Shown in pieces: positions 10,725-50,868 of a DNA stretch of 64,000 bases. Source of the stretch: Acidobacteriota bacterium (GTDB lineage Bacteria > Acidobacteriota > UBA890 > WLXD01); contig CBDBHB010000009.1 in assembly GCA_965205505.1 (NCBI GenBank), forward strand, positions 2,816,001 to 2,880,000, read 5' to 3'. The notes under the pieces were generated by a model, which had not been told where the DNA came from, made no database searches, and saw nothing but the letters and a program-made list of their open reading frames with translations. Made by a program: the position numbers and the translations under genes. Numbering within the stretch: the first letter of the stretch is position 1; each line of letters opens with the position of its first letter.

Positions 10725-12073
10725 CGCCCTGCTAGACCTGCCAGGTAATCGCGCGTTTCTTTCCGGCACACCGAGGCCAGCCCGATCAGGCCGATGAGGT
10801 TCGGTACCGCCATCGCGGCGTTGAGCGCATCGGCGAGCTGCCAGACGAAGTCGACGCGTCCAATCGCTCCGACGAAAACCATTGCCGTGAACACCACCCG
10901 ATACGGGGTGATTAGCCGCGAGCCGAACAAGTACTCGATCGATCGCTCACCGTAGTACGACCAACCCAGGATCGTGGAGTAGGCGAAGAAGACCAACGCC
11001 AGCGGAACTACCACGCCGCCCGCGGCGCCGGGCAGGCCGGCGCTGAAGGCGTCGACCGACAAGGGGGCACCGTCGACGCCACTGCTCCATACCCCGGTCG
11101 AGATGATCACGAAGCCGGTCATCGAGCACACGACGATCGTGTCGATGAACGTCTGCGTCATCGACACCAGCGCCTGGGTTACCGGGTGCCGCGTTTGCGC
11201 TGCCGCCGCCGCGATCGCGGCAGAGCCCAGGCCGGACTCGTTCGAGAACACGCCGCGGCCGATGCCGTAGCGCATCGCCTGGGCTACGGTGGCGCCCAGG
11301 AAGCCGCCCGCCGCGGCTGTTGGCGAGAAGGCTTGGCTAACCACCAACGCGACGACGGAGGGTATTTGGTCCAAGCGCGTCACGATGACTACGAGCGCTG
11401 CACCGACATACAGCAGGATCATCCCCGGGACCAGAAACTGCGTGACGCGCGCGATGCCGCGAATGCCACCGATTATCACGGTCCCGGTGGCCACCGCGAT
11501 TAGCAGTCCGGTAGTCCAGACAGGCCAACCGAAGTAGCTTTCCATCGCCGTCGCGACGGAGTTGCTCTGCACCATGTTGCCGATGCCGAACGCCGCCAGA
11601 GCGGTAAGCAGCGCAAAGGCACTGCCCAGGAAGGGGCTCCCTAGGCCATCGCGGAGGTAGTACATGGGGCCGCCGCTCATCTGGCCGCGTGCGTCAGTGG
11701 TGCGGTACTTCACCGCCAGCAGGGCTTCGGCGTACTTCGTGGCCATGCCGAACAGTCCGGTCACCCACATCCAGAAGAGCGCCCCCGGACCGCCGGCGGC
11801 GATCGCCGTAGCCACACCGGCGATGTTCCCGGTGCCGACCGTGGCCGCGAGCGCCATCATCAACGCTTGGAAGTGTGAGATGTCGCCGTCCGCGTCGCCT
11901 TCCTCGCGACGCTTTACCAGGGCGAGGTAGAGTGAATGCCCGAGCAGGCGGAACTGAATCCCGCCGAGCACCACCGTCAAGTAGACCCCGGTCCCGACCA
12001 ACAGCAGCAGCATGGGAGGACCCCAGAGATAGCTGTTTATCAGGACGAGAAGGTCAGTCGCTTGCTCGGACAC
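10721..12073 (-). CDS. Sodium:alanine/glycine symporter (AGCS family)
   Basis: [37 protein letters not shown]; probable GTG start at 12073 (alternative 12136). Confidence 0.93.
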
Positions 12074-36347: not shown

Positions 36348-37769
36348 ATGACCGACCTTGACAGGCTGCGCATGTCTGAGACGAGCGTGAGTCCGTTGCG
36401 CAAGCCACGCTATTGGATCAAGACGTTCGGCTGTCAGATGAACGTGCACGATTCGGAGATCTATGCCGGCCTTCTCGATGGCATGGGGTACGAGGCCGCC
36501 GAGCAGGCATCCGACGCCGATCTCGTGCTGGTCAACACCTGCTCGGTGCGCGAACGTGCCGAGGACAAGCTCTTCTCGCAGCTCGGCAGGTTGCGCCAGA
36601 TCAAGGATGTGTTGTCGCGCGAGGGCGGTCGAGGCGGCGAGCCGCGCGAGTTGCTAGTGGGGGTTACCGGCTGCATCGCGCAGCAGCGTGGCGGGGAGAT
36701 CATCGATCGCCAACCCAGCGTGGACTTCGTCATCGGTACGCGTGCCATTCATAGCCTGGGCAGCGTTCTCGGTCGGGTACAAGCTGGCCTCGGCCCACAG
36801 GTCAATACCGAGGACCAGGTTCAGTTCGAAACTCCAGAAGCCCACCGCGCAGACCGCGTTCGCGCCTTCGTAACCATCATGGAGGGATGCAACAACTATT
36901 GCTCCTTCTGCATCGTTCCGAGCACCCGCGGCTTGGAGATCTATCGTCCGGCACACGCGATTGTGGACGAGATTCGGGGCCTTGGATTGCGTGGCTACCG
37001 TGAGGTGACCCTGCTGGGGCAGAACGTGAATTCGTGGGCCGACCCCGAGACCGGGATGGATTTCCCCGGACTCCTCGCGGCGATCGACGACATGCTGCAG
37101 GCGACTCCGAGCACGGAGCCGAGCGTTGAGCGCGTCCGCTTTCTCACGTCACACCCCAAAGATATGTCGTCGCGCCTCATCGAGGCGATGGCCGAGCGCC
37201 CGACCGTGGCCAACCATATCCACCTGCCGGTGCAATCAGGTTCCGACCGCATCCTCCATCAGATGAACCGCCACTACACGGTCGATACATATCGCGGCCA
37301 GGTCGAGGAACTCCGCCGCCGGATACCGGAGGTCGGGCTGTCCACCGATATCATCGTCGGTTTTCCGGGCGAGACCGACGCCGACTTCGAGGCCACCCTC
37401 GGTCTTGTACGCGACGTCGAGTACGACTCTTTTTTCTCGTTCGAATACTCGCCACGTCCTGACACGGCCGCGCTCAACTACGAGGACGACGTGTCTGCGA
37501 AGGTCAAGCGCGACCGCCTCCTTGAGCTCCAGGACGTCGGTCGCGAGATCCAAGAGCAGCACAACGCGTCGTGGCTGGGTCGTCGTACGGAGGTGCTGGT
37601 CGACTCCGTCAGCAAGCGCACCGCTGAGGACGTGTCGGGCCGCACCTCCTCGAACCACATCGTCAACATGCCCGGCGCCCACGAGCTAATCGGTAGCCTG
37701 GTCGATGTGAGGGTCACATCGTACGCGGCGCATAGCCTGTATGGCCGGGTGGTCGGCGATCCACAGTGA
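36348..37769 (+). CDS. miaB: tRNA-2-methylthio-N6-dimethylallyladenosine synthase
   Basis: TFGCQMN.HDSE, NTCSVRE, EGCNNYCSFCIVP, TRAM domain. Confidence 0.95.
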   Translation: MTDLDRLRMSETSVSPLRKPRYWIKTFGCQMNVHDSEIYAGLLDGMGYEAAEQASDADLVLVNTCSVRERAEDKLFSQLGRLRQIKDVLSREGGRGGEPRELLVGVTGCIAQQRGGEIIDRQPSVDFVIGTRAIHSLGSVLGRVQAGLGPQVNTEDQVQFETPEAHRADRVRAFVTIMEGCNNYCSFCIVPSTRGLEIYRPAHAIVDEIRGLGLRGYREVTLLGQNVNSWADPETGMDFPGLLAAIDDMLQATPSTEPSVERVRFLTSHPKDMSSRLIEAMAERPTVANHIHLPVQSGSDRILHQMNRHYTVDTYRGQVEELRRRIPEVGLSTDIIVGFPGETDADFEATLGLVRDVEYDSFFSFEYSPRPDTAALNYEDDVSAKVKRDRLLELQDVGREIQEQHNASWLGRRTEVLVDSVSKRTAEDVSGRTSSNHIVNMPGAHELIGSLVDVRVTSYAAHSLYGRVVGDPQ

Positions 37770-37848
37770 CGATCGCGTCAGGTGCAGCGCGATGCTTGAT
37801 CCGATCTTCGATGCGCGCATATAGTCGTCTACAAGTGAGGAGCGCCGC

Positions 37849-38334
37849 ATGCAGGTGGAGATGAAGGTCATGGGGTTGATGGTCGACCCGGTGACGAACA
37901 TGCCGATCGTCATTCTCAAGGATGACTCGGAAAACCACGTCTTGCCGATCTGGGTGGGGATCTTCGAAGCCAACGCCATCGCCTTGAAGGTCGAGGCGAT
38001 AGATACGCCGCGGCCGATGACGCATGACCTGCTGTACAGCATGGTTGGAGCGTTCGGCGCCCGGGTTGACAAGATCGTAGTCACCGAGCTTCGCGAGAAC
38101 ACGTATTTCGCGCAGATCCACATGCAGATGAAAGGCAGCGAGATCACGGTCGATTCGAGGCCGAGCGATGCGCTCGCGTTGGCCCTTCGGACCGAGGCGC
38201 CGATCTTTGTCGAGGAGGCGGTGCTCAATCAGGCGCGCTCCGTCGACGACGGCCGGGACTTGTCGAACTCGGAGCGGTTGCGGCGCTGGTTTGAGAACTT
38301 GGACCCCGACGAGTTCTCGAAATACGAGATGTAG
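37849..38334 (+). CDS. Bifunctional nuclease family protein (DUF151)
   Basis: LPIWVG.FEA.AI, RPMTHDL, DSRPSDA. Confidence 0.92.
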   Translation: MQVEMKVMGLMVDPVTNMPIVILKDDSENHVLPIWVGIFEANAIALKVEAIDTPRPMTHDLLYSMVGAFGARVDKIVVTELRENTYFAQIHMQMKGSEITVDSRPSDALALALRTEAPIFVEEAVLNQARSVDDGRDLSNSERLRRWFENLDPDEFSKYEM

Positions 38335-38622
38335 GCGTGTCGAGGGCGAGATTCGGTTGCGCTCTCTGAGGTCCTCCTGCATGATGGGTCGTCCCGCGGA
38401 CAACGACGGGTTCGCAGCCGGTTCGGCGGGATGCGCAGCGCACGGGTTTGAGGCGAGCGCCGGCGCGTAGTGGGCGGGCATAGAACCCTGGCAGCCGGGA
38501 AAGCAGTCGCCGTGGGATGACCTCGTCGGGCACGGGGGCGGGTGCCGGCGCCGCCGCGGAAGGACTTGCTCAGGGTGGTATCTGGGAACGGCTATACGAC
38601 CAAGAAAGCCGGTCGCCCGACG

Positions 38623-39378
38623 ATGATCGTCTCGGTGGCGAACCAAAAAGGCGGCGTGGGGAAGACCACGACCGCGGTGAACCTGGCGGCGGCACTGGCG
38701 CTAAAAGGGCACCGCACGTTGCTCGTCGACCTGGACCCGCAGGCACACAGCACGATTTCCTACGTTGACTCGAGCGAGTTGGAGCTGACGATCTACGACG
38801 TTCTGGTCGATACAAGTATCGAGCTCGAGCGAATCGTGTGCGCGACGGGGCTCGAGAACCTCGACGTGGCCCCGGCTCGAATTGCGCTGGCTAAGCTCGA
38901 GATCAAGCTGTCGGGCGAGTTTGATGGTCACTATCGACTGCGGGACCATCTGGCTACTATTAGTCAGAAGTATCGTTTTATAGTCATTGATACGCCCCCG
39001 ACACTAGGACTGCTCACAATTAACGCACTTGTCGCATCTTCACACGTCCTCATCCCTATACAGTCGTCGTACCTAGCGATGGAAGGCACGGACGACTTGC
39101 TCGACACGGTGCAGCGCGTCCGACAGCGAGTGAACCCGAAATTGGAGCTGCTCGGAGTGTTGATCACGATGCTCGATCGCCGCACGGTGTTGGGACGTGA
39201 TGTGGTCGAGCAGGTGCGTCGCGTCTTCGGTGACAAGGTGTTCGATACGGTGATCAGCCGGAATGTAAGGTTGGAAGAGAGCCCTGCATACAAGGAAGCG
39301 ATCTTCACACATGCGCCGTCGTCGACCGGCGCGGAGCAATACGCAAAGCTTGGAGAGGAGGTATTGGCGCGTGTCTAA
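38623..39378 (+). CDS. parA: ParA/Soj family ATPase
   Basis: NQKGGVGKTTTAVNL, DLDPQ, DTPP.LG.LT.NAL. Confidence 0.92.
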   Translation: MIVSVANQKGGVGKTTTAVNLAAALALKGHRTLLVDLDPQAHSTISYVDSSELELTIYDVLVDTSIELERIVCATGLENLDVAPARIALAKLEIKLSGEFDGHYRLRDHLATISQKYRFIVIDTPPTLGLLTINALVASSHVLIPIQSSYLAMEGTDDLLDTVQRVRQRVNPKLELLGVLITMLDRRTVLGRDVVEQVRRVFGDKVFDTVISRNVRLEESPAYKEAIFTHAPSSTGAEQYAKLGEEVLARV

Positions 39379-40234
39379 GCGACTTGGGCTGCCGGTCACG
39401 ACACGAATGCGGCATGACGCTCACTTTGTAGAGGAGTTGGCGGCGGAGCATACCCGTGCTCTCGGGCAATTCCTGTCTTTGGAGTTGATACGTCCGAATC
39501 CCAACCAGCCGCGGCAAGTGTTTGAGCGACTCGAGGAGCTCGTTGCCTCGATTCAGCGCGTGGGCATACTGGAGCCACTGCTGGTCCGACGAGCCGCAAG
39601 CGGTTACCAGATCATATCGGGCGAACGTCGCTTCCGGGCAGCCCGCGCTGCTCAGCTCAAGGAGGTCCCCTGCATAGTTCTCGATGTTGATGATGCGCGT
39701 GCGCTCGAAATTGCGCTAATCGAGAACCTGCAGCGCCAGGACCTATCAGCTTTCGAGGAGTCCGAGGCGCTCCAGGCGCTCATCGACCAGTTCGGATTCA
39801 CCCACGACGACGTCGCGGAGCGGATCAGCAAGTCCCGTTCGAGCGTTACGGAGTCCCTAAGCCTGCTGGTCATGCCACGCGAGGTCCGCGCGCAGCTGGA
39901 GGAGGCAGGGATCCGCGGCAAGTCACTGCTACTCGAGATCACCCGGTGCGACACGGCTAAGGAAATGGCAGCGCTCGCGCAGCGCGTCATCAACGAGGGG
40001 CTGACGCGAGACGATCTTCGCAAGATACGGCGGGCCGAACAAAAGGCAGCGGCGGCCGAAGAGGTAGCCAGCACCACGAAGCGGCGGGCGCCTCGACGGC
40101 TCACCTTCCGGTCCAAGGAAGGAGTGACCGTGAGTGTCTTCTTGGGAAACGACGAGGTTTCGCTAGCCGACGTCGAGCGATCGCTGCTCGAGGCGATCCG
40201 CAGCCTGAGATCCAACGGCATCCCCGCAATCTAG
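39371..40234 (+). CDS. parB: ParB/Spo0J family CTPase with a non-canonical HTH
   Basis: PNPNQPR, GERRFRA, LIENLQR, HTH KSRSSVTESLSLL; GTG start overlapping parA after GGAGG. Confidence 0.88.
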   Translation: MSKRLGLPVTTRMRHDAHFVEELAAEHTRALGQFLSLELIRPNPNQPRQVFERLEELVASIQRVGILEPLLVRRAASGYQIISGERRFRAARAAQLKEVPCIVLDVDDARALEIALIENLQRQDLSAFEESEALQALIDQFGFTHDDVAERISKSRSSVTESLSLLVMPREVRAQLEEAGIRGKSLLLEITRCDTAKEMAALAQRVINEGLTRDDLRKIRRAEQKAAAAEEVASTTKRRAPRRLTFRSKEGVTVSVFLGNDEVSLADVERSLLEAIRSLRSNGIPAI

Positions 40235-40370
40235 GTACGCGGACGCTTTCCTTCCTTGCGCGTTACGGACCGGCGGCGCGCCCCGGACTACGGGAGGGGT
40301 GCCCGCCTGAATTGTCCTCGTGCAAGACCGGCCTCGACCGGACGGCATCAACCTAAAGTAACGTCTTAGA

Positions 40371-40392
40371 GAATGTCGGCGCGCCGACATTC
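40371..40392. promoter_or_regulatory. Perfect 22-bp palindrome, candidate parS-like site
   Basis: GAATGTCGGCG|CGCCGACATTC, 137 bp after the parB stop; 16-bp TGT...ACA core. Confidence 0.5.
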
Positions 40393-40781
40393 GGCGCTCG
40401 CTGCGGAGGCAACTCACGTCCCTTGCAGGGTGGCCGCTCGCAGGAAAGCCGGAAACTGTTACTCGGCGAAGCGAGCCAGTTCGACGCGGCACTCCTACGT
40501 GCTGGACCTGGCGGCGCGGACAGTAACGATTATAGGAAGCGACTTATCGCTGACGGCAGGATCGAGGGGAGCCCTCGCTCGTGTGGCGAGGCGGTGCGGC
40601 CAATTGAGTCGTGGCGAAGTGGTCCGCGAGCAAGGCTGTCCTGATCAGGCGTTTCGCCGCCCCGGATGGCGCTTCCGGTCGGTGGCACGCGCAGGCATCG
40701 AGGCCGCGCCGTCTGTCTCGCAGGGTTGACGGCGGCACCGGCTGGATGCCTACTTGGCGGGGAGGGTGGGGCAGCGATGCC

Positions 40782-41322
40782 GTAACAGATGATCGTTGCA
40801 TATCGCAGATGGGATTTGCGGGTGAGATCAAGGCGCGGCGAGGATGTCGATGCTAGCAGGCCGTGATGGAAGTGTGGTGGGTCTGGCAAGTGGGACTCAC
40901 GGGCTAGGGCAAGGATCGACGACGAGGCGATGCTGGAGCCATCGTCGAGGAGAGAGACGCCGCCATCGCCCGTGACTCCCACTTGCCCTACGGGTTACGC
41001 CGCCAAGGGCGCGTCTCCGGCGTTGCCGCTCCTAGACGATGCGCACGGGCATCGCCGGCGACGCGGCGCCTTGGATCTGCGCCCTTGGCGGCGTAACCAG
41101 ACCCATCACACTTCCATCACGACCTGCTGGGGCATCGTCGACGAGGCGCAACGCCGATATCGCCCGCAACTGCCCATCTGTCCGCAGGATGGCGGCGAAA
41201 TCGGCCCGTCTGCGGCGTTGCTCCTCCTCCAAGATGGGCAAACATCGTCTCCTCGTCGCGCCTGGCATCCGGACCCATTTCGCCACCACGATACGCAACG
41301 ATCATCTGTTACAGGCCACTAG
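40782..41322. mobile_element. Type 3 MITE-like element carrying a nested type 1 element (40853-41130)
   Basis: Outer repeats GTAACAGATGATCGTTGC / GCAACGATCATCTGTTAC; inner repeats CTAGCAGGCCGTGATGGAAGTG / CACTTCCATCACGACCTGCTGG. Confidence 0.85.
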
Positions 41323-41879
41323 GAGCCGGCAATCGCGAGGTCGCGTTCAATCGCAGCGCGTCCGCGATCGGTGATTCGGTACTCGTAGGCGCGACCGCGG
41401 CGCCGGCGGTCAACGAGCTCTCGCGCCGCACGTAGCGCGTTACTCACGTTCGTGCGGTATACGGACCGCACGCGGCCTCGCTCCGCCAGGAAGCGCTCGA
41501 TCTCGCGCGGGGTCATCCATTCGATTCCCAGTTGCACGCTCGTTGCCTCCAATGCGACGAGCGCTTTTAGAAGCATCTTTCCAGGCGTCGCCAGAACCGA
41601 CGCGTAACGCGCCAGCCGCAACCGCGAGGAGTCGGACCCAGCGCGCCGTGGCACGGCCGTACCCGGCTCACTTGCTGACTTTCCAATGGCGCGGGGGAGG
41701 AGGGCCCGGACAATTTCGATCCGATACGCCTCGGGTACCCGGTGCTCCACGATGGCAATCAATGAGAGGGCGCGATCCACTTCCTCGGAAATGTCCGGGT
41801 CATCCCGACGCTCGGCCTGCGCGGACGTGCTCCTGGCGCAAGATGTCTGGCTCGGAGCCGGGTCGTGTGGCTTGCTCAA
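41319..41879 (-). CDS. Hypothetical protein with a C-terminal winged helix-turn-helix
   Basis: MTPREI...NVSNAL...LVDR...YEYRITDRG wing pattern; AGGA before TTG. Confidence 0.65.
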   Translation of the reverse strand: MSKPHDPAPSQTSCARSTSAQAERRDDPDISEEVDRALSLIAIVEHRVPEAYRIEIVRALLPRAIGKSASEPGTAVPRRAGSDSSRLRLARYASVLATPGKMLLKALVALEATSVQLGIEWMTPREIERFLAERGRVRSVYRTNVSNALRAARELVDRRRRGRAYEYRITDRGRAAIERDLAIAGS

Positions 41880-41973
41880 CGCGCCATCCTATCTCGTTTT
41901 CCCAGAATCGGTGGCTACACCCGGGCACCTGTCGACGAATATCGTCGTCATACACCTTGGCGTCAGGGGTCGC

Positions 41974-42143
41974 TGTGGATAATCCGTGGTAGAAGCAGCA
42001 CGTTTTGCGCCGCGCCGAGGGTGAGGCGCCTATGTACAAAGGGCTTTCGGCGTATTACGTACGGAACGTCAGCCTCTTGGCGCTTGTGGAAAAACTGTAA
42101 ATTATTGTTAATACGATTTTAATACGATAACTATATCAAGAAA
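41974..42143. promoter_or_regulatory. DnaA boxes plus an AT-rich tract
   Basis: TGTGGATAA 41974-41982, TGTGGAAAA 42085-42093, AT-rich 42091-42143 with TTAATACGAT twice. Confidence 0.4.
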
Positions 42144-42172
42144 ACGAGACACAAGCGCGTATAATCCGCCGC

Positions 42173-42823
42173 ATGAACGTTCCGCAGGCGTTACTGCAGC
42201 GCTCGAGCCTCCGTTTCTGCAAGGCGTTCTTCGAGGTTACCGACAACGCGGCGACGCATGAATGCCTGCTCAGGCTGGGAGCGCAGGAGTTGTCGGAAGC
42301 GATAGGTGACGCCGCCACCGAGTGTTGGTATTGGTGGTACGGTGGGCGGGACGATGCCGATCGCCGCTACGACGCCTTCCTGCTCCGTCTGCGCCCCGCC
42401 CGACTTGTGCTGGAAGGAGCCACAGCGGCGTCGGTGGGTCGCGGTTGGCGCGTGCTGGATCAGCAATTGCGACCGCACGCCCGGGCGCGGGTCGCCGCGC
42501 GCGACGACTTGGCGCGCTTCGTTCCGGGCCGGCGACAGCACTCCGCAGACCGACCGGAAACGTGGAGCGCCGGCCACGAGGCTCGCGTGCTGGCCGAATT
42601 CTACGCCTCTTTCGCGGCGCGCTGGGCGCGGCAACCCCACTCGCGCCTTGGTGGGATGAGTCCGCTGGATGCCCTGCGGCATCCAGCGAAGCGGGCGTGC
42701 GTCGACGAACTATTGGCTCGCATGGAGCGCCTCGAAGAAGAGCGCCGGCAACGCGGCATGCAGAGTTTCGCAGTCGAGGATTTGCGACGTGCTGTCTTCG
42801 GCGTTGACGGAGACGCAGAGTGA
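42173..42823 (+). CDS. Hypothetical protein with a Xre/MbcA/ParS-like C-terminal motif
   Basis: W..QPH..LGGMSPLDAL.......VDELL..ME. Confidence 0.6.
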   Translation: MNVPQALLQRSSLRFCKAFFEVTDNAATHECLLRLGAQELSEAIGDAATECWYWWYGGRDDADRRYDAFLLRLRPARLVLEGATAASVGRGWRVLDQQLRPHARARVAARDDLARFVPGRRQHSADRPETWSAGHEARVLAEFYASFAARWARQPHSRLGGMSPLDALRHPAKRACVDELLARMERLEEERRQRGMQSFAVEDLRRAVFGVDGDAE

Positions 42824-44004
42824 GGATCTTCTGGGGCCCGCGTATGACGGCAAGCTTGACGCTCATCCTGTTCACAGCGACTGCTTTGGCAGTGGCGGCG
42901 CAAGCCCCGGAGACGCGCGGGCGTGCCCGCGACTTCGGGATTGCGCCAGGTGTTCTGGCTGCCGGGCCGCTGAACGCCATTACCGATGTGGCCGGCGTCC
43001 TCGTCGGCCACGTCACTCTCGTCGTACCGCCCACCACGAACACTGGGGTGACGGCGATTCTGCCGCACTCCGGTAACATATTCCGCGACAAGGTTCCCGC
43101 TGCGGTCTTCGTGGCCAATGGATTCGGGAAGCTGACCGGCATCAGCCAGATCCGCGAGCTCGGAACCATCGAGACGCCCATCCTGCTCACCGGTACGCTC
43201 AGTGTTCCGCGCGCCGCAGACGGGTTGATCTCGTACATGCTCGGCCTGCCGGGCAACGAAGATGTCCGCTCCATCAATCCGGTCGTAGGCGAGACCAACG
43301 ATGGTTACCTGAGCGACATCCGCGCCCGCCCGATCCGACCGGAGCATGTACGCGAGGCGATCGAGTCCGCCAGTTCCGGCGCCGTTGTGGAGGGCAACGT
43401 AGGAGCGGGCAGCGGGACGATCGCGTTCGGGTTCAAGGGTGGCATTGGCACCTCATCGCGGCGACTACCTGAGCGTCTGGGTGGCTGGACGGTAGGTGCC
43501 CTGGTGCAGACCAACTTCGGAGGCGTGCTCACCATCGCCGGAGCACCGGTCGGCGTGAAGCTCGGCCGCTACTACCTGCGCGATGTGCTGACGGGCTCGG
43601 CCGACGAGAGGGGCGGAGCCGACGGCTCCTGCATGATGGTAATCGCGACCGACGCGCCGGTGGATGCCGCCAATCTCGAGCGCCTGGCGCTGCGTGCTTT
43701 CATGGGCATGGCGCGCACCGGGGCGTCTGGATCGAACGGTAGCGGCGACTATGTGATCGTGTTCTCCACCCACTCGGGACTACGCTCCGGGCCGGATGGC
43801 GAGGCGCGCCCACGGGTCACCCCGCTGGCCGCCGAGCGACTATCGCCGCTGTTCATGGCTGCCATCGAGGCCACCGAGGAATCGATCTACAACAGCCTGT
43901 TTCAGGCGCGCACCACCGTCGGCGCTCGAGGCACCATAGAGGCGCTGCCTTTACAGAGGACGCTCGACATCCTCAGAGAGCACGGCGTCGTGGAACAGCG
44001 CTAG
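42820..44004 (+). CDS. DmpA/P1 family aminopeptidase
   Basis: NAITDV.GV.VGH, NGFGK, ETNDG.L, EGNVGAG, FKGGIG, DG|SC cleavage site, GSGD. Confidence 0.92.
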   Translation: MRIFWGPRMTASLTLILFTATALAVAAQAPETRGRARDFGIAPGVLAAGPLNAITDVAGVLVGHVTLVVPPTTNTGVTAILPHSGNIFRDKVPAAVFVANGFGKLTGISQIRELGTIETPILLTGTLSVPRAADGLISYMLGLPGNEDVRSINPVVGETNDGYLSDIRARPIRPEHVREAIESASSGAVVEGNVGAGSGTIAFGFKGGIGTSSRRLPERLGGWTVGALVQTNFGGVLTIAGAPVGVKLGRYYLRDVLTGSADERGGADGSCMMVIATDAPVDAANLERLALRAFMGMARTGASGSNGSGDYVIVFSTHSGLRSGPDGEARPRVTPLAAERLSPLFMAAIEATEESIYNSLFQARTTVGARGTIEALPLQRTLDILREHGVVEQR

Positions 44005-46239: not shown

Positions 46240-46551
46240 TCAACCGTAGAGGTACGTGACCCCGTAGCCGCCCTGCGGGTTGTTCCACGTCGTGTAGCGG
46301 CGCGCCACCTGACAGGTGCCGCACTCGAGGCAATCCTCGTAGTTGACGATGCAGCTCGAGTCTTCGGCGTTGAGCTTGAATACCTGGGCCGGGCAGATGA
46401 AGAGGACCGCTTGGTCGGGGTCCTGACGGAACGCATCTTGATCTACGTGGATATGGCTCTCGTCAGCGAACCGCCGCTTTACGAGATCGAGGCGCTGAGC
46501 CATCGACAGCGACTTGTGGGGCGTCAAGTACTCGCGAACGTCGATTGCCAT
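46240..46551 (-). CDS. fixX: FixX-like ferredoxin
   Basis: HI.V, CPA, CLECGTC, W.NP.GG.GV.Y.YG. Confidence 0.85.
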   Translation of the reverse strand: MAIDVREYLTPHKSLSMAQRLDLVKRRFADESHIHVDQDAFRQDPDQAVLFICPAQVFKLNAEDSSCIVNYEDCLECGTCQVARRYTTWNNPQGGYGVTYLYG

Positions 46552-48066: not shown

Positions 48067-50868
48067 ATGATAGATGTCCGCAAGGAGTCTTGCCGCGCCG
48101 TGGCGTGCGTGGCGCTGGTGGCGATATCGGTGCCGAGTGTCTCGGGGGCGACGGCGCCATCAGCGGCGCAGGCGGCGACCCTGCACCTGTCCAACGCGCC
48201 GATTCGGCTCGAGTATCCCGAACCGTGGCGCGACTGGGCCATCAACCTGGCATCGTTCGCCGACGTGGCGGCAACACGCATCGCGAACCTGATCGGTGTG
48301 TCCGTGCCCGCGGGCACGATTCGCTGGGAGCCGACGGCTTCCGGGCCGGGCAGTAGCGCTGACGGAGTCGTGGAGGTGCGCGGCGAGGGCCGGCAGGCGG
48401 TCGTCGTCATGCACACCAACGTACCCCTGTTGCTGCGGGACTTCGGCGCTGCCCATGCGCTCGGCTACGCGCGTTGGCTCGGCGCCTACGTGGTGGCGCG
48501 AGTTGCCATGGGAGCGCCGGGCAGTGATGCGCCATGGTGGACGGAAGGCGCGGCGCTGTACCTCACCGACCTGATCTACCGCGATCTCAAGTCGACCACT
48601 CCGGTGCTATATGGCATCGAGGCGAACTTCACACGTGCTGCCCAGAGCCGGCGTCTGGTTGACCTGTCGGAGAGGGTGCTCACGGACGCCGCGCGGGGGA
48701 AGGCCTACGCCACCTTCAAGCTACTGGAGGGACTGTACGGTGCCGATGCCGTCACTTCTGCGATCGGGCAGATGGTTTCCCGACCCTCGGTGAACTTGGC
48801 GGCGATCATCGACGCCATCGGCCGCGAGCGTCAGCCGGACCCGGATATCGTGGTACGCGATTGGCTCAAGCCAACGGTGACCTTCGATGTGGGTATCGAC
48901 CGTGTCAGTCTTCGAGACGGAGATACACGGCTGCGAGCCCGGTTGCTACGCGAGGTGCCGTTCCCAGTGCCCCTGACGGTCCAGGTGCGCTGTCCCGGCG
49001 ACCAGGTCATTACTGAATCGGTGGCGGCAGGTACGGACGACGAGTCGTTCGAGATGGAGTTGCCCTGCGTTCCGGTCAGTGTGGCCGTCGATCCGAACCG
49101 ACTGATCCCCGATGTGAACCGCTCCAACAACAGCCACGGCTTTGGCGACGCCGACACGATCCGTCGGTTCTTCGCCTTCGACGAGCGCTTCACGGTCGGG
49201 GAGTTGCGGTTCTCGACCACGATGGCGCTGGACGAGGCACAGCAACGAGTCGAGCCGTTTCAGTTGAGGGTCACGAATCGTACCGATCGGGCCACCGGTG
49301 TCGGTGTGTTGATTAGTACCGAATGGTTCCATCGCCCAGAACGTGTGCAGCGTGCCTACTTCGTGAAGATGGGCCCGCGCGAAACGCGCCTGCTCGACGA
49401 GTCGCTGGGATACCCGAATCGCGGCACTGGCCACGCTCGGGTGGAAGCGAGGTTTTGGGAAGCGGCCAGCGTCGAGGACCTGACGGACAAGATCGTGGCG
49501 CGCCCGCCCGGTGCCATCAACTCCTACATCGTCGTGCGCGATGCACCGGAGGCGCCACGTCGGGCCCGACGTGGCATCTACCGTCTCCCGCCGACCATTG
49601 CCGAGACCACTGCCGTCTTGAGCGACAAGCCGGAGGAGCGGTCGACGGAAGCGGTGACCCGCTTCTCGAGCGGGTTGGGCACGCCGTCGAATGGCTCGGG
49701 CGTCGAAAGCGAGAGCGCCGCGGCGACCGAAGCGCCGGCCACCGCAGGAGATGTGTTCCGCGTGCGGATCCGGTCTCCTGCGCCGGGCACGTTGCCTATC
49801 GGGGACGTCGAGCTCGTCGCCGATGTGGTCGGAAACCGATCAGCCGAGCGAGTCGATTTCTATGTCAACGACCGCCGTGTCGGATCCGCGGAGGATGAGC
49901 CCTTCCGAGTTTCGTGGAGCTTCCCCGATGACGAAGAGGTCTTTGTCATACGGGCGGTCGCGGTGGCCGACGACCGCGTCGCCAGTGACGATGTGGTGCT
50001 CGACCGAGCCACGGTCTCCTTCGGCGCGACTGTCAACCTGGTGACCCTACACGCTACCGTGCGGGACTCCCAAGGGCGCCTCGTGCGCGACTTGACACCG
50101 GAGGACTTCCGGCTGACCGAAGACGGGGCGGACCAGGAGATCGTGCAGTTCGATTTCGGCGAAGTTCCAGTTTCGGCGGCCATCTCGCTTGATCAGAGCA
50201 GCAGCATGCTGGGCGGCGGCGTGCGCGCCGAGCGGGCCGGCGGGCTACGCCTTGTCGATGCCCTGGTGAGCGACATCAACCGAGCCATGATTCTCGGTTT
50301 CAATGATCGCCTTTGGCTCTACGCCGATTTCACGCATGACAAAGAGGCGCTGGCGGCGGCGCTGGAGGCGATCGACCCGGATGGCAGCACGGCGCTCTTC
50401 GATACGCTGGCCGAGTCGATTCGCAAGCTCGATCGGCGCACCGGAAAGCGTGCCTTGGTGGTGTTGTCGGACGGGCTCGACACCAACAGCAAGATGATCT
50501 ACGCGGATGTATTGGAGTTCCTCCGCCAGTCGGATGTTCTCGTCTATACCGTCGGCCTTCAGCTGATGCAGGAGGGCACCGAGTACGGCGATGCCAGCGG
50601 CGCGGTGAAGCGGGGCATCGAGCAGCTCCAGGCAATCGCCGATGCCACCGGCGGCGCCTCCTATTTCCCCATCGCCCTCCAAGAGCTCGAGGAGATCTAC
50701 GGTCTCATCGCCGACGAGCTCAACAGCCAGTACGCGCTCTCGTACTACCCCACCAATAGCCGCTACGATGGCAACTGGCGAAGGTTGGCTGTGGAGGTCA
50801 AGGGAAGGCCGGGAGTCTGGGTACAGGTGCGCGAGGGTTACTACGGCGTTGACCCCGACGGCCGCTGA
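48067..50868 (+). CDS. Secreted multidomain protein: gluzincin-like, Ig-like and VWA domains
   Basis: Signal peptide, WWTEGAALY, VDP.RLIPDVNRSNN, Ig-like VDFYVN, MIDAS DQSSS, TALFD, LSDG.D. Confidence 0.8.
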   Translation: MIDVRKESCRAVACVALVAISVPSVSGATAPSAAQAATLHLSNAPIRLEYPEPWRDWAINLASFADVAATRIANLIGVSVPAGTIRWEPTASGPGSSADGVVEVRGEGRQAVVVMHTNVPLLLRDFGAAHALGYARWLGAYVVARVAMGAPGSDAPWWTEGAALYLTDLIYRDLKSTTPVLYGIEANFTRAAQSRRLVDLSERVLTDAARGKAYATFKLLEGLYGADAVTSAIGQMVSRPSVNLAAIIDAIGRERQPDPDIVVRDWLKPTVTFDVGIDRVSLRDGDTRLRARLLREVPFPVPLTVQVRCPGDQVITESVAAGTDDESFEMELPCVPVSVAVDPNRLIPDVNRSNNSHGFGDADTIRRFFAFDERFTVGELRFSTTMALDEAQQRVEPFQLRVTNRTDRATGVGVLISTEWFHRPERVQRAYFVKMGPRETRLLDESLGYPNRGTGHARVEARFWEAASVEDLTDKIVARPPGAINSYIVVRDAPEAPRRARRGIYRLPPTIAETTAVLSDKPEERSTEAVTRFSSGLGTPSNGSGVESESAAATEAPATAGDVFRVRIRSPAPGTLPIGDVELVADVVGNRSAERVDFYVNDRRVGSAEDEPFRVSWSFPDDEEVFVIRAVAVADDRVASDDVVLDRATVSFGATVNLVTLHATVRDSQGRLVRDLTPEDFRLTEDGADQEIVQFDFGEVPVSAAISLDQSSSMLGGGVRAERAGGLRLVDALVSDINRAMILGFNDRLWLYADFTHDKEALAAALEAIDPDGSTALFDTLAESIRKLDRRTGKRALVVLSDGLDTNSKMIYADVLEFLRQSDVLVYTVGLQLMQEGTEYGDASGAVKRGIEQLQAIADATGGASYFPIALQELEEIYGLIADELNSQYALSYYPTNSRYDGNWRRLAVEVKGRPGVWVQVREGYYGVDPDGR

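Follow-up and report, generated by a model that had tools for sequence, protein, structure and literature searches.

INTRODUCTION

Canonical parS sites have been described as a common mark of chromosomal ParABS systems (in passages of PMC7022226 and PMC5450999). Chromosomal parS serves as a guide to origins and to the likely loading sites of SMC, and partition systems are annotated with its help. The parts of PMC7383237 that deal with specificity report that Q162, G170, K171, S172, N178, and R204 of ParB contact parS and are conserved in about 1,800 ParB and about 400 Noc proteins, that R173 hydrogen-bonds guanine 1, that R201 of Noc reads cytosine 6, and that four changes (R173Q, T179K, A184K, and G201R) turn Caulobacter ParB to the Noc site. 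The ParA-binding motif of ParB is given as (L/F/I)G(K/R)G(L/F/I) in part of a 2025 survey of the ParB-CTPase fold (PMC12704722). We analyzed a 64,000-nucleotide stretch of the genome of an Acidobacteriota bacterium (GenBank assembly GCA_965205505.1, contig CBDBHB010000009.1, positions 2,816,001 to 2,880,000; here called the window) that carries a parA-parB operon with an altered ParB recognition helix and a parS-like palindrome downstream of it. Judged by comparison with its relatives, this operon is probably the chromosomal ParABS of a large monophyletic acidobacterial ParB clade whose centromere has been re-specified.

RESULTS

A palindrome conserved within an acidobacterial ParB clade

The operon and the palindrome occupy the following positions in the window:

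38623..39378, forward strand: parA, a Soj-type ParA ATPase of 251 amino acids with the deviant Walker A motif KGGVGKT
39371..40234, forward strand: parB, 287 amino acids, with a ParB_N CTPase fold and HTH_ParB, followed by a C-terminal domain predicted as beta-beta-alpha
40371-40392, no strand: perfect 22-bp palindrome GAATGTCGGCGCGCCGACATTC, beginning 137 bp past the parB stop
40374-40389, no strand: its 16-bp core TGTCGGCGCGCCGACA (GTCGGC-NN-GCCGAC), the proposed centromere and parS-like candidate site

By itself the palindrome is barely beyond chance and is not significant. Two perfect palindromes of 22 bp are present in the window, and a length of at least 22 bp was reached by 11 of 200 first-order Markov shuffles. 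The core, 139 bp from parB, is the sole site in the 64 kb; at up to three mismatches it occurs once, against 1.9 occurrences expected, and the 14-mer GTCGGCNNGCCGAC at up to two mismatches has 9 matches (1 of them exact) versus 13.2 expected. We rejected extra sites in the window, as these relaxed GTCGGCNNGCCGAC matches are not enriched. Canonical parS (TGTTNCACGTGAAACA) had no match in the window at up to three mismatches. The palindrome gains its significance from conservation in relatives, and in the intergenic alignment of the window with its close relative, locus L001, it is the longest perfectly conserved block.

We searched for homologues and obtained at least 120 relatives at 51 to 100% identity, those with names being Acidobacteriota; 22 of the 120 listed relatives were aligned (alignment A1). 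A scan of species-representative genomes, with patterns that favored this clade, listed at least 80 loci. The 80 listed loci comprise 21 clade loci (L001 to L020 and L026), whose ParB has the N-terminal motif of the window and a (V/I)TE helix, 3 loci of Aminicenantes, and 56 loci of other phyla. All were obtained through ParB, and the counts below cover ParB-bearing loci with their flanks. In a careful maximum-likelihood tree with 7 hand-chosen outgroups from the 56 other-phyla loci, the 25 acidobacterial rows (24 loci and the window) formed one clade with 100/100 support. The ParB clade is thus monophyletic.

The window and the 21 clade loci together make 22 clade sources (363,927 bases), in which the exact 16-mer occurs 9 times versus 0.0012 expected under a first-order model, and GTCGGCNNGCCGAC occurs 13 times, in 8 sources, versus 0.21 expected. 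Neither was found in the 56 listed other-phyla loci (874,265 bases) or in the 3 Aminicenantes loci (29,957 bases). Canonical parS at up to one mismatch showed the reverse distribution, with 0 of 22 clade sources versus 20 of the 56 other-phyla loci, and 0 of 3 in Aminicenantes. The first-pass annotation, made from the letters of the window, had proposed a ParB-site pair of new specificity. The palindrome and the lack of canonical parS that it described were found as it gave them, and the comparison favors its proposal in that the site stands letter for letter beside orthologous parAB operons in 8 of the 22 clade sources and in none of the 56 other listed loci.

The eight carriers are the window, L001, L002, L003, L004, L006, L008, and L013. 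They are spread over at least five separate lineages inside the ParB clade, and the identity of their ParB to that of the window goes down to about 42%. All 13 sites are identical at positions 2 to 7 and 10 to 15, and variation is confined to the outermost base and the central two, which read GC in 11 sites, AT in L006, and AC in L008. The flanks of the sites are unrelated, save between the near-identical window and L001, and the 32% G+C locus L006 keeps TGTCGGCATGCCGACA between A+T-rich flanks. Fixed half-sites with differing flanks are the pattern of a site for a dimeric helix-turn-helix (HTH) protein.

A palindrome at this place could also have arisen by chance or serve to terminate parAB transcription. 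It lies downstream of the operon, palindromes of its length arose in some of the shuffles, and its RNA could form a 9-bp hairpin. Against this, what is kept across ParB identities of 42 to 92% is the exact sequence and not a structure, and it is kept upstream of parA and inside parB as well. The palindrome has no T-run, was not called by a terminator scan, and has an unremarkable fold energy (z −0.76, with 37 of 200 shuffles folding as well). We rejected the terminator reading on these last three grounds, and we give chance and termination together a probability close to negligible.

The placement of the site is centromere-like. It lies 0 to 139 bp past the parB stop in the window, L001, L002, L003, and L008 and about 60 to 70 bp upstream of parA in L004 and L006. 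L002 and L003 have a second, syntenic site 3.2 to 3.5 kb downstream. L013, a Blastocatellia locus of 20.8 kb, has four exact copies across 14.5 kb, one of them inside parB, where it encodes CRRAD, and the others 3 to 8 kb away. This distribution also bears on a different role for the palindrome, mainly as an operator through which ParB, in a KorB-like manner, or another regulator controls parAB transcription with no centromere role. Such a role would fit L004 and L006, where the site shortly precedes parA (in L004 it is followed after about 30 bp by TTGACC, which resembles a −35 element), and the single site at the operon in most genomes. It fits poorly with an operon-proximal site that is downstream of parB, off the promoter, in 5 of the 8 carriers, with the dispersed copies of L013, and with the second site of L002 and L003, and we regard it as quite unlikely. 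In known ParBs, autoregulation and centromere function can coexist.

Two further observations concern the sampled loci. The Aminicenantes loci have ParB-like genes (L021, 2973-3689; L022, 755-1480; L023, 2311-3036) with a (V)TE recognition helix and without the MRHD N terminus, an adjacent parA, or a flanking palindrome; these genes appear to be orphans within the clade. The record of L006 (5004 bases) is labeled uncultured Clostridia bacterium and has a G+C content of 32%. Both its ParA and its ParB fall in the acidobacterial clade, with a tree position next to Aminicenantes, and there may be an error in its label or in the binning.

The recognition helix of ParB

The altered helix and the start of the DNA-facing helix that follows it are encoded here:

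39830..39868, forward strand: HTH recognition helix KSRSSVTESLSLL, residues 154-166 (helix at 156-167 in the AlphaFold 2 [AF2] model)
39920..39925, forward strand: K184-S185, which open the following DNA-facing helix at or beside the Caulobacter G201 specificity position

The DNA-binding domain of Caulobacter ParB, whose structure was solved on parS (6s6h), aligns with the present ParB as follows:

Caulobacter K171: K154 here
Caulobacter S172: S155 here
Caulobacter R173: R156 here
Caulobacter A177: T160 here
Caulobacter N178: E161 here
Caulobacter T179: S162 here
Caulobacter R181: S164 here
Caulobacter A184: V167 here

The set of parS contacts is thus partly kept and partly changed. The equivalents of K171, S172, and R173 are retained, Asn178 is replaced by Glu in all of the 120 listed homologues, and Q162 is replaced by His. 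R156, T160, and E161 are each present in 120/120, and T160-E161 is also invariant in A1; position 164 is variable in the clade (S in 85, R in 12, and T in 11 of 120). At the start of the next helix, 118 of the 120 have K at position 184 and the other 2 have R, followed by S185 in every one. In the MAFFT alignment K184 stands under the canonical Gly equivalent to G201, and in that of HMMER one residue further on; no Arg stands at the R204 equivalent in either. In a library of 1.84 billion proteins, the 149 new sequences among the best 150 cluster representatives had Glu161 in 62 cases and the canonical Asn in 80.

The first-pass annotation had quoted the helix string correctly, and the helix that it saw as altered carries clade-invariant changes. 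It went astray in naming the missing Arg as R149 of B. subtilis Spo0J, a residue essential for specific parS binding (stated in part of PMC5731820). The Spo0J Box II residues G77, R79, R80, and R82 (given in part of PMC4052768) fix the offset of chain 6sdk_A at +19, so that R149 is chain residue 130, the Arg of GKSR. This Arg aligns with R156, which is kept in 120/120 homologues; the Arg that is actually lost is at position 164 (LRLL to LSLL).

In the numbering of PMC7383237, the clade half-site reads G1 T2 C3 G4 G5 C6 G7. It keeps G1, whose reader Arg is also kept, and is changed at positions 3 to 5 and 7, on which Thr160/Glu161 may act. We infer this assignment of residues to bases; what the data show is co-variation of the kept and the changed parts.

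With its C6 and its basic residue at or beside position 201, the pair resembles Noc and its site, and the Noc model TIGR04285 gave ParB its best NCBIfam E-value (5e-47). The first-pass annotation had offered a Noc-like CTP clamp as one of two outcomes, and we considered such a clamp with a site of its own and no role in partition. The score against that model, 160.4 bits, is below its cut-off of 315, and parB is coupled to a Soj-type parA. The R173 equivalent is still Arg, and the residues equivalent to 179 and 184 (S162 and V167) are not lysine, so that none of Q173, K179, and K184 is present. The N terminus of ParB is charged and does not appear to be membrane targeting. We consider a Noc-like clamp highly improbable.

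Domains, CTP motifs, and N terminus of ParB

ParB matched Pfam ParB_N (1.6e-28) and HTH_ParB (4.4e-16) and NCBIfam TIGR00180 (144.5 bits versus a cut-off of 58.45). Its CTP (cytidine triphosphate)-binding motifs and its N-terminal motif are encoded as follows:

39377..39439, forward strand: N-terminal clade motif K-R-x-G-L-P ... M-R-H-D-x-H-F-V-E-E-L, residues 3-23
39620..39640, forward strand: Box II GERRFRA, part of the CTP-binding motif, residues 84-90
39722..39736, forward strand: Box III ENLQR, residues 118-122

The retention of the CTP motifs and the unusual N terminus, (M)SKRLGLPVTTRMRHDAHFVEEL, had both been noted in the first-pass annotation and are as it quoted them. In Box II, E85, R86, and R87 are kept in 120/120 listed homologues, as are N119 and R122 in Box III. 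Box II was aligned to M. xanthus ParB solved with cytidine diphosphate (CDP). The Gln-to-Ala and Glu-to-Ala mutations of the M. xanthus ParB entries 7bnr and 7o0n fall at the positions of Gln46 and Glu85 here. The AF2 model of ParB had a mean predicted local distance difference test (pLDDT) score of 80.7, and its top Foldseek matches were ParB structures solved with CDP or CTPγS. The DNA-binding domain superposed on 6s6h with a root mean square deviation of 2.3 over 110 columns (Foldseek). The C terminus had no Pfam match and is modeled as beta-beta-alpha at residues 242-282 with a pLDDT of about 80; R242, R243, G251, and T253 in this region are invariant in A1.

At the N terminus, M13, R14, H15, D16, H18, F19, and V20 are invariant in A1, and the clade consensus is (K/R)(K/R)GLP-x(4-5)-MRHDxH(F/Y)VE(E/Q)L, which stands in place of LG(R/K)GL. 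We tested 13 of the 56 other-phyla loci, and all 13 canonical ParBs had LGRGL or LGRGI. Because parB is always coupled to parA in this clade, we take the N-terminal motif to be a putative variant ParA-activating peptide.

Operon structure and chromosomal setting

ParA is of the chromosomal type Ia class of about 250 amino acids that has no N-terminal HTH extension. Its residues 7-16 are NQKGGVGKTT, a deviant Walker A motif, and it matched Pfam AAA_31 (8e-56) and CbiA (7e-27) and fell under the cut-off of every NCBIfam equivalog model. The start of parB, set by the N termini of homologues, is a GTG that overlaps the end of parA including its stop, and a Shine-Dalgarno-like sequence lies nearby. 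These elements and the two genes upstream of the operon are located as follows:

36348-37769, forward strand: miaB (Pfam), upstream neighbor of parAB, conserved in the clade
37849-38334, forward strand: BFN-domain gene (Pfam PF02577, bifunctional nuclease), upstream neighbor of parAB, conserved in the clade
39352..39361, forward strand: Shine-Dalgarno-like GGAGAGGAGG, 9 nucleotides before the parB GTG and within the end of parA, read from the sequence

The overlap of the parB GTG with the parA stop, with GGAGAGGAGG 9 nucleotides upstream, indicates that parA and parB are translationally coupled. The same coupling to a Soj-type parA was found in every locus with flank. In all 21 clade loci parA is upstream of parB, partly cut by a contig end in L012 and L020, and in the 14 aligned loci the ParA upstream of parB is 56 to 93% identical to that of the window.

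The BFN gene is directly upstream of parA in the window and in 16 loci (L001 to L005, L007 to L010, L013 to L015, L017 to L019, and L026) from several acidobacterial classes, and miaB is upstream of BFN in the window and in 15 loci. The exceptions to the order miaB-BFN-parA-parB are loci with short flanks and L006. We rejected a plasmid origin: of 3,687 matching PLSDB records, none reached 60% identity, and the highest value was about 43%. Conserved miaB-BFN-parA-parB synteny and the lack of a plasmid ParB at 60% identity or more point to this system as the vertically inherited chromosomal one of its lineage. We observed as a separate matter that the pairing of the BFN gene, which encodes a nuclease domain, with parAB is fixed.

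The main competing explanation, to which the other outcome offered by the first-pass annotation (a second partition system) belongs, is a second, auxiliary partition or positioning system, with another cargo or function, that coexists with a canonical parAB-parS near oriC on the same chromosomes. An operon away from mnmG, rsmG, and dnaA, a single site in 64 kb, and an orthogonal specificity of the kind seen in the co-resident secondary replicons of Burkholderia (part of PMC5450999) would all be expected of such a system. Housekeeping synteny conserved across classes, a ParA of Soj size and type, and the lack of close plasmid relatives count against it. So does the lack of a canonical recognition helix in all of the 25 acidobacterial loci among those listed by a scan whose patterns favored this clade. 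We judge an auxiliary system unlikely.

Points that weigh against the proposed re-specified chromosomal system

Several results weigh against the reading that we prefer, in which a chromosomal ParABS has acquired a new centromere. The case for a ParB-site pair is built on co-occurrence. As the first-pass annotation had stated for mnmG and rsmG, neither of these nor dnaA was found by Pfam among the 41 large open reading frames (ORFs) of the window, and its GC skew showed no switch. His145, at the Q162 equivalent, is not diagnostic of the clade, as His is also present in 18 canonical-type representatives. The published ParA-binding motif was found in 0 of 22 rows of A1 and in 0 of 25 locus rows. 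Finally, 14 of the 22 clade sources (L005, L007, L009 to L012, L014 to L020, and L026) have no site within flanks of 5 to 20 kb. We looked in these 14 loci for an alternative palindrome, covering 6+gap+6 palindromes, 16-mers with at most one broken pair, and clustering of near-palindromic 14- or 16-mers. Every palindrome that recurred proved to be constrained by codons, at coding places that are syntenic between loci (such as LIDLD of parA and IELD of parB), and none of centromere type emerged.

Thirteen of the 14 site-less sources form one subclade of Thermoanaerobaculia with 100/100 support. The 14th, L020, starts inside parA, so the position of the site in its sister L004 falls outside it. 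The Thermoanaerobaculia subclade may have shifted to yet another site.

We made two other observations in these loci. The spacer between BFN and parA of the site-less Thermoanaerobaculia has arrays of 7-nucleotide direct repeats, mostly arranged as long inverted arms, with units that include GAGTCGG, GTGCCGA, CCGGTAA, and GGGGAGT; GTCGG is common to L005 and L007. The arrays lie here:

L005, 9094-9235: heptamer array
L007, 9088-9223: heptamer array
L014, 9063-9158: heptamer array
L015, 9160-9229: heptamer array
L026, 9105-9235: heptamer array

We considered these heptamer hairpins as ParB sites and rejected them, because the repeat unit varies among genomes with near-identical ParBs. The second observation is a promoter-like motif, (T)TGACATAAT-N-TATCTTAT-N-GGAC, which follows parB in a pair of Thermoanaerobaculia loci that are only distant relatives (L009, about 10920-10950, and L020, about 1780-1810).

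Other features of the window

Apart from the operon, the window is ordinary chromosomal housekeeping DNA, as judged by Pfam on the 41 large ORFs. It encodes a class I W/Y aminoacyl-tRNA synthetase, GlnA, QueG, MoeA, ClpB, Lon, RarA, TsaC, MiaB, the BFN-domain protein, and UvrD. No tRNA was found in the window, and Rfam gave solely a sub-threshold microRNA match in 37500-43000.

After parB, about 1.08 kb (40235-41318) has no convincing ORF or Rfam match. Compared with 10865-11310 of L001, this segment has insertions of about 100 bp and about 540 bp, and the two share other conserved blocks outside the palindrome, such as GCGGCACCGGCTGGATGCCT near 40735. The next ORFs, at 41319-41879 on the reverse strand and 42173-42823 on the forward strand, belong to no Pfam family and among the fetched loci were seen only in L001. 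In L002 and L003, an S58 peptidase gene lies directly 3' of parB.

The second perfect 22-bp palindrome of the window, GCCACGTCGGGCCCGACGTGGC at 49554-49575, is inside an ORF of 933 amino acids with VWA/Big_7 matches (48067-50868). The core of this palindrome, CGTCGGNNCCGACG, is found again in L013 and L026 and, probably through coding constraint, in L001 and L002, where it lies in a stretch that matches the VWA/Big_7 ORF. Another palindrome, CACCTGNCAGGTG at 46306, is also present in L001 and L002 and appears to sit in a small coding region.

DISCUSSION

The operon, the domains and motifs of its products, and the conserved site that accompanies the ParB clade are direct observations, and together they suggest a mechanism. 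ParB dimers would nucleate on TGTCGGC-NN-GCCGACA in place of canonical parS. The outer TGT/ACA, which the site has in common with parS, would still be read by the kept Arg156 (R173 in Caulobacter and R149 in B. subtilis), and Thr160/Glu161, which do not vary in the clade, would read the altered inner bases together with Lys184 at the start of the next helix. With CTP bound through the intact Boxes I to III, ParB would close into a clamp and spread from the site. The ParB complex would then activate the co-transcribed Soj-type ParA via the variant peptide (K/R)(K/R)GLP...MRHDxHFVEEL.

A stronger form of this proposal is that the operon is the sole chromosomal ParABS of the clade and that both ends of ParB were re-specified together, with an Asn-to-Glu helix for a new 16-bp parS and a replaced LG(R/K)GL peptide, so that a near-universal centromere has been replaced. 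We advance this version tentatively, as a possibility that falls somewhat short of even odds.

If the proposal is true, it would be a phylum-scale exception, and scans based on parS would miss the centromeres of many Acidobacteriota. It would also be a second natural specificity switch in the ParB family besides Noc, reached by a different route, in which a universally conserved Asn is changed and the Arg that Noc changes is kept. The ParB/site pair, and possibly the ParA/peptide pair, would probably be orthogonal to the canonical ones and could be used in multicolor locus labeling; in nature, a major soil and sediment phylum would have an orthogonal segregation machine. We found neither the 16-mer nor its 14-bp core in any paper in a full-text literature search, and searches for parS or ParB with Acidobacteria or Acidobacteriota, or for non-canonical parS, gave nothing relevant. 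The main text of the 2025 survey of the ParB-CTPase fold (PMC12704722, in the portion consulted) has no mention of Acidobacteria.

The system resembles the canonical ParABS of B. subtilis (Soj/Spo0J), Caulobacter, and M. xanthus, with its parS, in having a parA-parB operon and a Soj-type ParA. The likeness of ParB extends to the ParB_N CTPase fold (GERRxRA and ENLQR), the ParB-type HTH, a predicted C-terminal domain, and the Arg at R173/R149. The clade site and canonical parS are both perfect palindromes of 16 bp that begin with TGT and end with ACA, and the L013 site inside parB is a further likeness. The two sites differ at 10 of 16 positions, with an inner CGGCG here and TTCAC in parS. Canonical ParB has Asn178, Ala177, R204, and LG(R/K)GL, whereas the clade has Glu, Thr, no Arg, and a replaced peptide at these places, and the canonical operon lies beside rsmG/mnmG, whereas the clade operon does not.

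Noc and its site in Bacillota (Noc-NBS) are the documented case of a ParB paralogue with changed DNA specificity. The clade resembles them in a small number of substitutions, located in the HTH and the helix next to it, and in having a basic residue at or beside 201 and a C at position 6 of the site. Noc keeps Asn178 and changes R173 to Q, whereas the clade ParB keeps the Arg and changes the Asn; Noc works as an orphan and together with the membrane, whereas the clade ParB is coupled to a ParA.

The ParB-parS systems of Burkholderiales secondary replicons (Bsr) also have 16-bp palindromic centromeres of parS-like form with narrow cognate specificity (according to part of PMC5450999). Their sites have a T-rich 5' end and lie on secondary chromosomes and plasmids, whereas the clade site is G+C rich and belongs to a conserved housekeeping locus on what is apparently the main chromosome. 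KorB of RK2, a CTP-dependent clamp and repressor that acts at OB, shares the ParB fold (Foldseek match 8qa9, template modeling score 0.55/0.72), and in some relatives the palindromic site is, as with KorB-OB, near a promoter. It differs in its low sequence similarity (E value 8.5e-11), in that there is no KorA-type partner here, and in that the clade sites are mostly downstream or dispersed. What the acidobacterial clade appears to combine is a re-specified centromere and a re-specified ParA-binding peptide in one ParABS conserved in several classes.

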